Below are positions 4,201 through 62,200 of a stretch of DNA of 64,000 bases, in pieces. Source of the DNA: Octopus vulgaris (Eukaryota); the NCBI GenBank assembly GCA_951406725.2, contig OX597833.1, forward strand, positions 4,526,001 to 4,590,000, given 5' to 3'. Within the stretch, counting starts at the first letter, position 1. Every line of letters begins with the position of its first letter. The notes under the pieces were generated by a model that had not been told where the DNA came from, made no database searches, and saw only the letters and a list, made by a program, of their open reading frames with translations. Position numbers and translations under genes: made by a program.

Positions 4201-7200
4201 TTATTACTGCGATACTGGTTGTCACCACTGAGGGACAGCAGAACAGATGACAAATAGTTGTTGTTCTCATCAACAACCTGTAAAGAAAAGAAATTATTAT
4301 TATTATTATCATTATTATTATTATTGAGTGAGAGAGCAGTGGATGCAATCAAAGTGACGCTGGGGTAAAATATATGAAGCCCAGTATACCCATCATGACT
4401 ACCCGTCTGATAAGGGTACACTAGGCACATGCATCACAACCATATGTGTGCGACATTGTGATTTCATATGAAGATAAACAGCACATGACCTTGTAGGTGG
4501 GGCCCAGTTAGAATTTTCTTCTGGTCGAGTAACCCATCCCACTCAAAAGGTCCCTGAATAAGGATTAAGGATGTTGAACGAAACACCCATGTTTCCAGAG
4601 GTGAATTATCCAAACCCCAAAGAATCCCTCTCAACACATAGCTATGTTGCTCCCCCACTACTTCTGCTCGTGATCAGAGATGCACATATCGTCAGCCAAT
4701 AAGGGACATGCTCAACTGGTTAAGGTCAAACAACTGACAAGCAAATCTGTGGTATTGAGCAGAATATTTGCTGTAACCCATCTTTTATACCAAGACAAAA
4801 CGATGTACATGACAACACTTCCAATCAATTAAGATCAGAAGCCATGGGAGCCACTGCCTGGTACTGCATCAGGGCATTTATTATTATTATTATTATTATT
4901 ATTATTATTATTATTATTATTATTATTACACTAGTGCAAGCTGATTAAGTTAGCAAGTACCTTTATCTTGAGGCTTGGCAACTAGTCTCCTGAAATCTCA
5001 AGAAGCTTTCTTAAGATACTTGAACAATATAGGATGGCATTCTTTTGCTGCCGGTCGACAATGCAAGAATCAATTCCAATTCTTTTCAAGTCTTTTTGGA
5101 AGCATTTTGGGTGTTGTACCAAATGCACCAATTAATACAGGAATAATTATTGCCTTGGTCTTCCGCAGTTTCCTAACCCCTGCAACCACCATTACCTACA
5201 CTGCAAAGACCCCCACACTACTTCAACGCTCACCAATTCTTACAAAGAGAGGACAAAACTGTTGTCGCCTTACCGTGACGGATATTTCTCCAAGCTGAAG
5301 AGCTTTAAAGTTGTTGGGGTTTTGTGGGTCTTTGGTCAAAACATACCCAGTCTTTGACGCTTCCACACTGTATTTCTTGTCTCCGTGAAGAGGTCCCAAG
5401 CTGCAGGAGAGAAGCAGAAGAGGATTACTGATGCAATGCCTCAATGTCATGCATGAATAAACACATTTATGAGTGGATGTAAATGAATTAAGGGTTTTAC
5501 ATATTATATAGGAGAACTCCGTCAGTTACGACGATGAGGGTCCCAGCTGATAAGATCAACAGACCAGCTTGCTCGTGAAATTAATATGCAAGTGGCTGAG
5601 CGCTCCACAGACATGTGTACCTTTAACATAGTTCTCAGGGAGAATCAGTGTCACAGAGTGTGACAAGGCTGGCCCTTTCAAATACAGGTACAACTCATTT
5701 TTGCCAGCTGAGTGAACAGGAGCAACGTGAAATAAAGTGTCTTGCTCAAGGACACACGGTGTCCCTGGGAATTGAACTCATGACCTTACAATCATGAGCC
5801 GAACACCCTAACCACTCAGCCAACGTGCCTTCACACATATTATATATAGATCATTATATAATAACTATTAATGATTACTGAGAATTAGGTTAGACAACTC
5901 GTTATTACTAATTATGTAATTTATTACTAATAGAGCGAAACAGCTAAATAACTTTTAAATTAGGTTTTAATATATCAATCATATTATTTGTCTGTTTCTT
6001 CTAACACATAAAAAGGGGCTACTGAAAAATTCCTGGCATCAAGGGTATCAAGAAGGGTGGGATTAGAAGCCCAATTTTCCGAATTCTTTTACAGGGCTCA
6101 GAAAAACTAAAGGACCGTTGCAATAAATGAACCTGAGAGGGGGATATGTTGAATAAAATCATAATTAACTGGTCCTCCTGTATTTTCTTTTACCCAAAGG
6201 CAGGGACTTTTCAGCAACCCTCGTGTATATGTATATATATATATATATAATAATATTAAGGAGTAAATCCAAACTTACAGGGAAAAATTAGATTTAGGAT
6301 TAAATCTAATTTTATAGTATAAATATACATATATATATATATATATATATATATATATATATATTACGGAGATGTACTTGCATAGCAAGTGATTTGATCT
6401 GAGATCGTGTGCTGAAACGAAAGCAATTGCAGCGTGGAAGGTGTCTGTAAGCCATTTAAGAAACACACAAAAGCCGTTCGATTCACTTCAACATTTAAGT
6501 TTAATTTGTCAAAATATTTTCGTCGCTAAAATCCGCGACCTGTTCACTGACAAAAATCCGTGCTGCACGCATTTTTGTCAGTGAACAGGTCGCGGTCTTG
6601 AAGTGACGAAATGATTTTGACAAATTAAACTTAAATGTTGAAGTGAATCGAACGGCTTTTGTGTGTTTCTTAAATGGCTTACAAACACCTTCCACGCTGC
6701 AATTATATATATATATATATATATATATATATATATATATATATAAAATTAGAGATAAAAACCACTGTTCGGCAAATCAAACAGTGAAAATCATAAGCCA
6801 ATACATAGAAATAAAATTAATAAAAAAAATATATTGGCTTATGATTTTCACTGTTTGATTTGCCGAACAGTGGTTTTTCTCTCTAATATATTATATATAT
6901 ATATATATATATATATATATTTAAATAATGAGGGAGATAAATTGAATATTAATTTAATTAATATCAATTTTAAAACCAGTAGCCTAGCATATAAAAAATC
7001 TGAAAAATCAGTTGCCTAGCATTGTATATATAATATATATATATATATATATATATATATATATATATATGAATTTTTCAATGTGTACAAATAAACACAC
7101 ACACAGAGTCAAGAGACTTGAATGGTGCAAGTGAACTGGCAAAGTCCTTAGTACATCAGACACAACATTCCACGGTATTTGTTGACTACAAGGCATCTCG

Positions 7201-59200: not shown

Positions 59201-62200
59201 ACAAAGGAATAAGAAATTATATAATGTACTTCATTGGCTTGCAGCTGTTTCTGCTGTAGGATGCAATGCACTCATAGTTGAGTGCTTGAGTATCATCCAA
59301 TAGCTTCATCAGAGTTTCAGGCATATATGTATGTATGGCAGAGGCAGTAGTAGTAGTGGTGGTGGTGAGGCCTCAGTCACCACCACCACCAAGCTGAGAG
59401 AACCTCTAACTGCCAACCCCAGTCAATTAATATTCTCTAAACCAGTCCTACAAAGGCAGCACATCCAGAACATTCCACAACTTTGTTACTTACTCAATTG
59501 ACTTCTGTTCTCTTTTTGTTCTTCTTCTCGTAAATATTGACTCAATGCCTTCAAGTCGGTGATTTGTTCAAATGGATTATCTTAAAAATAAAAAAAAATA
59601 TTAAAAAAATGGGGAAACAAACATAAATAACCAAAAACAAAAATAATCAGTGATCGCCGTGGATTCCACAATTTAAATATTTCTAACTTTGGTCTTAATA
59701 CAAAATCAATCAACCATGACCCATTTGTACAATATTATTATTAGTTCAATACTTAGGGCAGTGATCTGGCAGAATCGTTAACACATTGGGCAAAGTGGTA
59801 TTTCATCCATCTTCATGTTGAGTTCAAATTCCGCAAAGGTCGACTTTCTTTTTCTTCCATCCAGGGTCAATAAAATAAGTACCAGTTGAGTACTGGGGTC
59901 AATGTAACTGACTAGCTCCCAGCTCTTGAAATTGCTGACCTTGTGACAAAATTTCTAAAACCATTATTAGGTTTTTCCATGTTTCTGAAGATGACCATCA
60001 AAATCAAAATCGTAATCTATCAACATCAGTGGAATTTGTAGTTGTGATACCAGTGCCAGTGGCATGTAAGAGAACCATCCGAACGTGGCCGTAGCCAGTG
60101 CCACCCCGACTGGCCTCCGTGCCGGTGGCTCGTAAAAAGCACCATCCGATTGTGGCCGTTGCCAGCCTCGTCTGGCACCTGTGCAGGTGGCACGTAAAAA
60201 GCACCCACTACACTCACGGAGTGGTTGGCGCTAGGAAGGGCATCTAGCTGTAGAAACACTGCCAGATCAGACTGGGCCTGGTGCAGCCTTCTGGCTTCCC
60301 AGACCCCAGTTGAACCGTCCTAACCCATGCTAGCATGGAAAGCGGACGTTAAACGATGATGATGATGATGATGACACTTTGTAGGTTCAGAGGTGGCTTA
60401 TTTGGGACAATATTGGCACAAAATCCACAATTGCAATGGGTGCATGTAAGAGCAGAGTTAAGACCTGGCAGGAAACTTGCTTTCTGTGCAACCCTCCACT
60501 CCTTAGCTTTTCTGGTCAGAATGAATCCTGAGTGCTGTGCTCCAGGGTATATTGCACAATGGTACAGCAGAAAAAAAAAAGCAATCAACCATGACACATA
60601 CACAGTGCAAAACCAATCAACCATACCTGCCCCATACACTGCAGTGTTTCTTGAAAGCTAAGAGTAAAGATTTTGTGAGAAAATATAAAAGAAAACAAAG
60701 GGTGGGGTAGTTAAAATTCCAACATACCAGAAATTTCTAAAGATGTGACATGTCTTGCTCTCAGACCACTTTGGTTCGGTGAATCATAGCGTGATGAATC
60801 GTTAAGACGATAGGAAGTGTTTAAACTGTCGTTCTACAGAAAATAAAAAAAAGAGTTAATAACTACTCGTTATTTACTGCAGTAATTGGGTTTCCAAGCT
60901 TTTACAGTTATGGATGCAGGAGAAAGAATAATGTATAGGAATGTCTGCATATATATATATTTAAATTAACGAAATTTTGGGCTGATGACAGGAATGTACA
61001 TATAGGTATGTATTTCTAGCATCTCTATATCTAACTAACCCAGAAACGCGTTCTCAAGTAATCGATTTATGAGTGATCTTTCGTAATTTTTCCCTCTATG
61101 CCTACGTGAATTGTTTTTGAGTATACATTGTCTGGGAAACTCTTCTTATAATAGGAGAAAAAGCTAAATTCTTTGGCTGCTATTTCTAAAAGTTCAGTAT
61201 GTGGTAAAGTAAATTTTTTTTGCTGAACCCTAATTATATAAAGTATATATATATATATATATATATATATATGCATATATAGACACACATATGTACATAC
61301 ATACGTATATATGTATATAGCTATGCATGTATCGGTACAGGACGTCACATTCCACTCGTTATGTGGGAGAGGTGTACTAATTCCCTACAAAAGTATATAT
61401 GTGTATGCGTGTGTGTGTGTGTATATATATATATATATATATATATATAGATGGATAGATAGATAGATAGATATAGATATACATACGTACATACACACAC
61501 ATTTTTTCAAGTGGCCACAACCAAGATGTATTTACAATGCAATATGTGTGTGTGTGTGTGTGTATGTGCTCGTGTTTGTCTCTGACCATTTACTAACGGG
61601 TGTTGGTTTGTTTACATCCACCCATAACACCAAAAAGAAAACTGATACAATAAATACTGAACTTAAATAAAATAAGTATTGGGTGCAATGATATTTTCTA
61701 AACCCTTCAAGGCGGTGCTCCAGCTTGGACGCATTCCAATGACAAAGACCAAAAAAAAAAGACAAAAAAAAATCAAACAAAAGAACACTCACTGCACTGT
61801 CTGATGACCAGTAGGTTGGTGAGGAGTGATTGCTGGAATAACTGTAGTGTAACGAACCGGAACTGACATTAGGGGTGTGACTAGAGTAAGTGCTGGACAT
61901 GGGGCTGTGATACCTTGGAGATGAACCTGGAGGACTGTGAGAAGACTTACTACCAGAACCGGGTGTGTAATATATTGATGAGCCAGCACCAGGTGGGGTG
62001 TGACTCCCCGAATAGCTGTGGGGCTGGGACGAGCCACTGCAATTAAACATCAGTTTGGTTGGAGTTGACGATGACACGTTTGGTTTCAAAGGAGAGATTT
62101 TGAATCCAGGATCTGAAAGCAGAGATGGCGCTACTTGAAAGAAGGAATCCCTTAGGGTAGAGATTAACAATTTACAAAGCATTATTGCAATGGAATTGGA

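Follow-up and report, generated by a model that had tools for sequence, protein, structure and literature searches.

Minimal type I hammerhead ribozymes are a recurrent feature of the pseudo-long terminal repeats (pLTRs) of Penelope-like elements (PLEs), where they number in the thousands per genome, occur mostly as single motifs or opposite-strand pairs, include a U3:A8 core variant, and show low activity in vitro (PMC4209133). Small PLE hammerhead variants with a diminished, palindromic stem III cleave as dimers (Lunse, Weinberg and Breaker, RNA Biol 14:1499, as cited in PMC6765202). An origin in, and mobilization by, PLEs has been proposed for retrozymes (PMC7229834; bioRxiv 10.64898/2026.07.22.740005), and metazoan non-LTR retrozymes have been argued to derive specifically from PLE pLTRs (bioRxiv 10.64898/2026.07.22.740005). 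PLE insertions follow a pattern that includes inverted 5'-truncated copies, a one-sided tail, and (TA)n targeting (PMC8557442). In the Poseidon PLE of Anolis, PAc, the reverse transcriptase (RT) initiates internally, two start sites make the tail, and the targets are AT-rich (PMC11167929); its hammerhead cleaves only with protein, the C3G/G8C double mutant partly rescues cleavage, and cleavage is dispensable for insertion in vitro (PMC11167929). What the hammerhead does for PLEs is still an open question in the field (PMC8557442; PMC11167929). Natural U3:A8, A6C, and U4C cores are known (PMC3088659; PMC7151607), with A6U unmentioned in the accessible text of PMC7151607, and G3:C8 is known as an engineered mutant (PMC11167929; PMC3884650). 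A published annotation of octopus repeats includes Penelope families that were active recently, with ribozymes unmentioned in its accessible text (PMC13282606). Here, we analyze hammerhead-like motifs in a 64-kb stretch of the Octopus vulgaris genome (assembly GCA_951406725.2, contig OX597833.1, positions 4,526,001 to 4,590,000; hereafter, the window), which covers parts of two host genes, NOMO and a TMEM209-like gene, and we trace the elements carrying these motifs through the 2.8 Gb and 227 contigs of the genome.

Nine type I hammerhead-like motifs, located exactly where a first-pass annotation of the window had placed them and with the stem I pairs it had described, sit in eight repeat copies of 180-340 bp (Table 1). 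A tenth copy, comprising only the 5' half of a hammerhead with its core at 22991(+), lies in the inverted arm at 22984-23082. The observation is real and well above chance, and two known kinds of element explain it. We consider it highly probable that the motifs are the hammerheads of eight Penelope-system repeats, which are likely short cDNAs put into (TA)n-rich introns by Penelope RTs and endonucleases, are now decaying, and are predicted not to cut host RNA. A single window offers a cross-section of both PLE hammerheads and retrozymes.

With a main descriptor (core, stem II of length at least 4, GAAA, stem III, and stem I of length at least 4) and 100 block-wise dinucleotide shuffles as controls, the window yielded 5 matches against a shuffle mean of 0.05 (maximum 1), a test that is partly post hoc in that the descriptor included variant cores seen in the window. 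A non-tuned search for a strict CUGANGA core and a palindromic stem III, with a long stem II allowed, gave 4 matches versus 0.5 (maximum 3), whereas the loosest descriptor was at chance (7 versus 7.7 in shuffles). Rfam returned 89 matches in the window at E<=10, none of them to a hammerhead model; to our knowledge, the Rfam hammerhead models are not built for minimal forms. In an arbitrary 200 kb of the genome, a revised descriptor found 3 matches (shuffle mean 0.1), compared with 5 in the 64-kb window, and BLAST adds about 5 decayed family copies. The density of one motif per 7 kb suggested by the first-pass annotation is therefore not general; judged from this 200-kb sample, it is nearer one per 25 kb genome-wide, which by rough extrapolation would correspond to hammerhead-like motifs on the order of 100,000. 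The matches in the arbitrary DNA represent three further hammerhead families (L524:~600-660(-), L527:9679, and L535:9959), one of them with U3:A8.

Each of the eight elements belongs to a genome-wide family with at least 39 other copies (40 candidates were scored per element search, with 70 to 4,328 first-look candidates), and in alignments of 11-14 relatives the majority sequence of each family fits the hammerhead consensus better than its window copy does. Stems I and II around the core, A15.1-U16.1, an H17 other than G, and a palindromic stem III are the majority state in all eight alignments. The uniform CUGAnGA core initially described is present in five of the nine motifs, but the other four read GUGAACA (6504 and 6574), CUGUCGA (13256), and CCGACGA (34509), and the family alignments identify these as family traits rather than damage. 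A CUGANGA-type core with G12, A13, and A14 is kept in five of the eight families (F22839, F28602, F32241, F59238, and F60976), whereas three, whose non-canonical cores had been overlooked, deviate family-wide: F6574 by G3:C8, F13256 by U6, and F34509 by C4. Just 1.1 kb right of the window (L307:1030-1240), another family, distinct from F34509, forms head-to-head hammerheads with a C4 core (CCGAUGA). The palindromic stem III is intact in 6504, 22839, and 60976, but has decayed from palindromic family forms in the other six motifs; for instance, where the window copy has ACAU, ACGU is found in 12 of 14 relatives at 13256 and 9 of 14 at 34509. (TA)n borders or fold-backs are clear in five of the eight elements, but not at 28602, 32241, and 59238. 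An extra A before G12 recurs in F22839, F28602, F59238, and F60976, as well as in two of the three arbitrary-DNA matches, and three window families have stem II regions of 55-100 nt. Within families, the 3' end is fixed at a point 130-280 nt beyond the motif, and inverted 5' copies are frequent, as in the PLE pattern of PMC8557442.

Protein-coding partners, sought by selecting loci on endonuclease (EN) protein similarity alone and then looking for the motif downstream, were found for four of the eight families. On this sequence evidence, F6574, F13256, F34509, and F22839 are identified as the 3' pLTRs of PLEs that encode an RT and a GIY-YIG endonuclease, two of them Neptune-type, one Hydra-type, and one of a third clade. 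The F6574 motif lies on the same strand, 836-1237 nt downstream of the EN, in 26 of 30 selected loci (one being the source), invariably as GUGAACA, and locus L304 holds an open 839-aa RT-EN frame upstream of it, with RT and GIY-YIG motifs and a BLASTP E value of 1e-7. As a control, the same motif was found behind none of 30 F13256-type endonucleases and, among 30 loci of another Neptune family, behind the source locus only. The F13256 motif follows the EN on the same strand at 561-1058 nt in 24 of 30 loci (one source), with the core CUGU(U/C/A)GA in 22 of these 24; at L305, an 853-aa RT-EN frame that matches Pfam RVT_1 has the motif downstream. In both L304 and L305, the motif is located ~0.5-1 kb beyond the open frame, and the ORF and 3' motif are present with no 5' pLTR copy within the fetched stretch. 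For F34509, the motif was within 1.5 kb of the EN in 4 of 30 loci; it was found downstream on the same strand in 17 of 20 extended loci, which, with 3 found earlier, makes 20 of 23 fully examined, the other 7 being negative within 1.5 kb without extension. Longer F22839 copies contain a decayed upstream ORF with a CxCX5C linker. The decayed frames of L416 and L410 carry CNCWVSQPC and CKLC, in line with the features of the Hydra clade, namely, a CxCX5C linker before the endonuclease and a CxxC near the conserved E. The F22839 motif occurs 777-1216 nt downstream, on the same strand, in 12 of 30 protein-selected loci (3 being source loci). Among named proteins, the best relative of one of the partner proteins comes from Octopus vulgaris, and part of that sequence matches the present genome at 100%.

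Table 1. Hammerhead motifs, the elements carrying them, and host genes in the 64-kb window
Feature	Position	Strand	Remarks
F6574, head-to-head 3' ends of an EN+ PLE	6366..6704	.	between (TA)n tracts; 276-bp inverted repeat, 93%
F6574 hammerhead, G3:C8 (GUGAACA), stem III AAUAUU	6504..6554	-	predicted cut after U17 at 6512
F6574 second hammerhead, G3:C8, stem III mutated (AUGAUU)	6574..6624	+	antisense to NOMO
F13256, 5'-truncated 3' end of a Neptune-type PLE	13208..13392	+	(TA)n follows; antisense to NOMO
F13256 hammerhead, U6 core (CUGUCGA), stem III ACGU decayed to ACAU	13256..13293	+	
F22839 fold-back	22772..23082	.	minus arm 22772-22966, plus arm 22984-23082
F22839 hammerhead, CUGAUGA	22839..22963	-	long stem II, extra A before G12, stem III ACAGCUGU, C17 at 22841, 2-bp stem I; sense to NOMO
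F28602, partial copy (old) of a ~400-nt permuted ORF-less unit	28590..28780	+	antisense to NOMO
F28602 hammerhead, canonical core, extra A before G12, U16.1 lost	28602..28644	+	
F32241, partial copy (old) of a ~300-nt permuted unit	32160..32378	+	antisense to NOMO
F32241 hammerhead, canonical type	32235..32283	+	core 32241, long stem III, C17 at 32279; stems I and III decayed
F34509, 3' end of a second Neptune-type PLE	34413..34624	-	single copy, sense to NOMO
F34509 hammerhead, C4 core (CCGACGA), stem III ACGU decayed to ACAU	34509..34543	-	
F59238 element	59095..59322	-	sense to TMEM209-like gene
F59238 hammerhead, CUGAUGA	59238..59314	-	long stem II, extra A before G12, stem III ACAGCUG(U>C)
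F60976, partial copy (young) of a ~585-nt permuted ORF-less unit	60961..61240	+	between (TA)n tracts; antisense to TMEM209-like gene
F60976 hammerhead, CUGAUGA	60976..61058	+	long stem II, extra A before G12, stem III ACGCGU, U17 at 61052
NOMO host gene	2494..35456	-	exons with Pfam support (PF22898, PF22904, PF23194, PF23141, PF22902) on minus-strand frames
PF09786 host gene (TMEM209-like)	48686..58046	-	PF09786 on four minus-strand frames 48686-54087; runs on past 58046

The G3:C8 family is abundant: its exact pattern has 3,871 matches genome-wide, compared with 0 for the reversed control, and head-to-head pairs occur among these loci. The 6504 copy is intact and matches the family majority, although it lies within a fold-back, in the sense orientation to NOMO. 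The 3' ends of F6574 copies cluster at two points separated by ~60 nt, and in the window the minus arm has an additional ~60-nt 3' tail (6366-6428). A 5' extension is found in 390 copies, versus the 3,871 motif matches. Among 30 pattern-selected motifs, some of which are two arms of one insertion, 18 start within the same 7 nt, at 54-60 nt ahead of the cut, and this start coincides with the end of a branch-point/pyrimidine/AG sequence held by the 390 longer copies; such clustering suggests a fixed RNA 5' end or a splice site, rather than random truncation. At L272:4900-4960 and L181-L210, the starts are mostly 57 nt before the cut, several with GAG instead of CAG; the GAG may derive from a cap that was copied or from a short exon joined by splicing. 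Two apparent associations of this family were rejected. Its first candidate partner, a Neptune ORF in L018 and an endonuclease in L204, proved to be an opposite-strand or truncated neighbor, with the motif at 0 of 29 other loci of that endonuclease, and a 5.2-kb tandem containing F6574 on C28 is a duplicated host gene rather than a PLE. This array (L016/L017, G000:C28:25046500-25066300) consists of four tandem ~5.2-kb gene-segment copies with an F6574 fold-back in each, and by its motif their 316-aa frame resembles an alpha-1,3-fucosyltransferase. The L018 stretch itself (L018:6030-6090, G000:C25) represents a Neptune-type family with many identical 784-codon frames; behind its L018 copy lies a U3:A8 hammerhead whose stem III reads ACCGGU.

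A different organization characterizes F60976, F28602, and F32241, for which two hidden Markov models (HMMs) found no linked ORF. In F60976, a same-strand direct repeat with a period of 533-596 nt is present in 7 of 14 extended loci, the sequence 5' of the motif continues the sequence 3' of it, and stem II covaries among copies (GGG/CCC versus GGA/UCC). F28602 shows permuted matches at ~335-410 nt, and L477 has two of its hammerheads ~400 nt apart; the periods in F32241 are 279-335 nt. These three families likely are non-LTR retrozymes, judging from their circularly permuted, ORF-less units. F60976 relatives were also found in assembled contigs of four runs guessed to be RNA, contigs that are uninformative on ends, circles, strand, and level. 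An apparent F60976 unit in a 1.95-kb tandem on C9 was rejected because it looks like a segmental array, and an apparent 38-nt intron within the 60976 stem II was dropped on inspection, since splicing would destroy that stem. The eighth family, F59238, has a low-complexity 5' extension of at least 900 nt and inverted 5' copies; its window copy has lost U16.1, which is U in 11 of 14 relatives. A lone endonuclease upstream of F59238 (L514) belongs to another element.

Thus, the proposal that the window contains many distinct families of minimal type I hammerheads of the Penelope and retrozyme kind, with PLE-type inverted structures (the fold-backs at 6366-6704 and 22772-23082) and (TA)n targets, is borne out. 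That all these families are non-autonomous holds for the three permuted, ORF-less families and fails for the four located behind RT-EN frames.

Are the deviant cores maintained? In samples not selected by the hammerhead pattern (37 distinct rows for F13256, 51 for F6574, and 49 for F34509), a test with few columns to which CpG decay contributes, shared variants within the F13256 motif are confined to N7 and H17, the two free positions; those in F6574 affect 0 of 11 core columns versus 5 of 8 loop II columns; and the only core variant in F34509 is C4 to U, which falls at a CpG. The F6574 element has a very young sister family with 54% protein identity, the copies of which are 99-100% alike and have open frames of up to 1312 codons. 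In 17 of 20 loci, the hammerhead of this sister, 762-777 nt after the protein match (L542-L561), carries C9 instead of A9 together with a stem III that is not palindromic; it shares the extra G of F6574, but has C3:G8, and the stem II pairing GUCAC/GUGAC versus GUCGC/GCGAC in F6574 constitutes a compensatory pair. Most simply, G3:C8 would be a double compensatory change from C3:G8, as judged from this one sister and the universal consensus. U3:A8 occurs in a further young family. The window contains the 3' end of the sister C9 family as well, in a fold-back after (TA)n at 23920-24076 (96% to L561); this copy begins ~2 nt after the sister's predicted cut, a single case that could reflect a cleaved template.

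Turning to the host genes, the Pfam search covered 217 of the 317 unmasked window frames, those of at least 45 aa, and supports NOMO and the PF09786 gene, the latter belonging to the TMEM209 family. The exon at 57871-58046 lies ~840 nt into a 2534-nt spliced-looking contig, the rest of which does not fit the window; the 59238 and 60976 motifs are most likely inside an intron of this gene. Repeats at the fetched loci match ~54% of the window, and the window itself has no match to three PLE protein sets or HMMs, indicating that no PLE ORF remnant is found there. Near-perfect fold-backs without a hammerhead stand beside (TA)n at 6748-6885 and 31064-31260, with repeat matches at 13 and 1 fetched loci, respectively, and give rise to spurious Rfam miRNA matches. 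Another repeat family (43773-44209, 52568-53006, and 55972-56408) consists of two units 253-255 nt apart and has no hammerhead by the descriptors used.

The proposed scenario would have the PLE endonuclease nick AT-rich DNA, whereupon the RT would initiate internally, 130-280 nt downstream of the hammerhead, and copy toward the 5' end; short products would leave a solo hammerhead, and a template switch would leave a head-to-head fold-back. Since copying takes in the entire motif, every copy would stem from an RNA that had escaped cutting. In the source elements, the motif would act as a slow, dimer- or protein-assisted ribozyme, so that cores such as G3:C8, U6, C4, and C9 could become fixed in successful families, and in the ORF-less units it would set free the monomers from which circles form. 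In two-copy cofolding, the stem III dimer was not the lowest-energy form, and this was not used as evidence.

Several observations weigh against this interpretation. Behind the Hydra-type ORF, the F22839 matches span only 23-158 nt, and a same-strand match is missing from 18 of the 30 loci. Permutation is found in a minority of loci for the two old retrozyme-like families (9 of 30 for F28602 and 4 of 12 for F32241), and F59238 showed neither a linked ORF (14+7+22 loci) nor permutation. The 839-aa frame of L304 has no Pfam match, and the family samples consist of best-scoring matches, not random copies. Furthermore, the 5' ends of unselected copies are not piled up at the predicted cut (0 of 7 and 1 of 14; small samples), so the genome shows no sign of in vivo cleavage; in this analysis, 150 of 171 F34509 matches were low-complexity artefacts. 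Cleavage, circles, and transposition are all predicted from sequence.

Alternative explanations fare differently against these data. Chance matches in AT-rich repeat DNA, to which the missing Rfam hammerhead and the unenriched loosest descriptor might point, are exceedingly improbable given the enrichment with tighter descriptors in the window and in arbitrary DNA, the family majorities that are more canonical than the window copies, and a position like that of PLE hammerheads. The original proposal, under which all motifs belong to non-autonomous SINE (short interspersed nuclear element)- or retrozyme-like families borrowing PLE proteins, is true for three families and gains from the excess of solo short copies over long ones and from the clustered G3:C8 starts, which resemble a defined short unit. 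Nonetheless, in most protein-selected loci the motifs of four families adjoin RT-EN ORFs without a break, in two families with long open frames, which makes this proposal improbable and, as a general statement, already refuted. More serious, even if we judge it unlikely, is the view that the PLE motif is no longer a working ribozyme and that its fold is kept to mark where the PLE protein binds or initiates, with vestigial catalysis. Five core deviations (G3:C8, U6, C4, U3:A8, and C9) fixed in young, highly amplified families of one genome, the coincidence of C9 with a non-palindromic stem III, the absent 5'-end pile-up, and the normal in vitro insertion of Anolis PLE hammerhead mutants (PMC11167929) all speak for it. 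Conversely, a Watson-Crick 3-8 pair, G5, G12-A13-A14, A15.1-U16.1, and an H17 other than G are kept across families, and F13256 varies only at N7 and H17, as catalysis requires. In addition, G3:C8 partly rescues cleavage by the Anolis PLE hammerhead (PMC11167929), and U4C viroid and A6C phage variants keep activity (PMC3088659; PMC7151607).

Could the motifs instead have been co-opted for processing of the NOMO or TMEM209 pre-mRNA? Four of the nine are sense to host genes (6504, 22839, and 34509 to NOMO, and 59238 to the TMEM209-like gene), the 6504 copy equals its family majority, and conserved intronic hammerheads are known in amniotes (cited in PMC7229834). Yet folding in a 500-nt context predicts that 0.89 of the 6504 bases and 0.77 of the 22839 bases are paired to the inverted arm, locking these motifs in 276- and 215-bp hairpins, respectively. 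The 34509 and 59238 motifs are predicted to fold locally, but the former has lost its palindrome and has no partner, and the latter has lost U16.1. With the sense copies thus predicted to be locked or mutated, cleavage of host RNA by the window motifs appears unlikely. The window copies differ from their relatives by ordinary decay, and a low-depth contig crosses the 59238 motif unchanged, although this is weak evidence from one contig that may be DNA. Co-option is, accordingly, very unlikely.

Returning to the interpretation of the motifs as hammerheads of Penelope-system repeats, we tentatively extend it as follows, a possibility that falls short of probable. Octopus PLEs may hold a natural allelic series of cores (G3:C8, U3:A8, C4, U6, and C9), each fixed in a separate young and successful protein-coding family and G3:C8 having arisen by a double compensatory change. 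Selection would keep the fold and the 3-8 pair, and would favor or tolerate a throttled, protein-assisted ribozyme so that the RT copies uncut RNA; most solo hammerheads would be short cDNAs that begin where the RT initiates internally and stop at a fixed 5' end of the RNA, immediately upstream of stem I. If true, this series would supply ready natural variants for testing the purpose of the PLE hammerhead, and the sister families with G3:C8 versus C3:G8/C9 make that role directly testable. Protein-coding families tolerate fixed changes at positions that search descriptors hold invariant, so that standard searches miss thousands of motifs.

The layer that the first-pass annotation called invisible to gene and ORF annotation is not invisible to the literature, in which minimal hammerheads of PLEs and retrozymes are already described (PMC4209133; PMC7229834; bioRxiv 10.64898/2026.07.22.740005). 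The remaining novelty lies in the core variants that are fixed throughout families of protein-coding PLEs and that may affect cutting. The octopus motifs resemble the minimal hammerheads of metazoan PLEs in their type I layout, extra nucleotide after A9, G10.1-C11.1, short stem I, and palindromic stem III, as well as in being located 3' of RT-EN, mostly singly or in opposite-strand pairs, with many families per genome (PMC4209133). They also resemble the variants of Lunse et al. in the reduced palindromic stem III and PLE association (via PMC6765202). In contrast, the 56 motifs of Fig. S3 in PMC4209133 include no cephalopod, and their cores are CUGANGA or U3, none of them G3:C8, U6, or C4; AGAAA, corresponding to the extra A of the four octopus families, appears in 1 of the 56 rows, and the long stem II regions of three octopus families differ from the motifs in that paper.

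The three ORF-less families are similar to non-LTR retrozymes in having ~300-600-nt units, one type I hammerhead, and more-than-unit or dispersed monomer copies (PMC7229834; bioRxiv 10.64898/2026.07.22.740005), and no octopus is mentioned in the accessible text of these sources. Unlike published retrozymes, the window copies are sub-unit fragments known from sequence, and a form with an extra A and a non-canonical stem II characterizes F28602 and F60976. The partners of F13256, F34509, and F6574, with RT followed by GIY-YIG and a CX2-5CxxC linker, are Neptune/Nematis-like, and that of F22839, recognized by linker motifs, is Hydra-clade-like through its CxCX5C linker (PMC8557442); the choice between the labels Neptune and Nematis is provisional, being based on motifs. 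The F6574 tail of ~60 nt exceeds the 30-40 nt of the PLEs in PMC8557442. Natural G3:C8 or U6 cores were not found in the accessible literature searched, which did not extend to the catalogue of Lunse et al., and may already be in print. The closest functional parallel is PAc, which likewise has its hammerhead in the pLTR and whose two RT start sites are paralleled by the two 3' end points of F6574 (PMC11167929); G3:C8, a laboratory mutant in PAc, is the natural state of an octopus family with thousands of copies.

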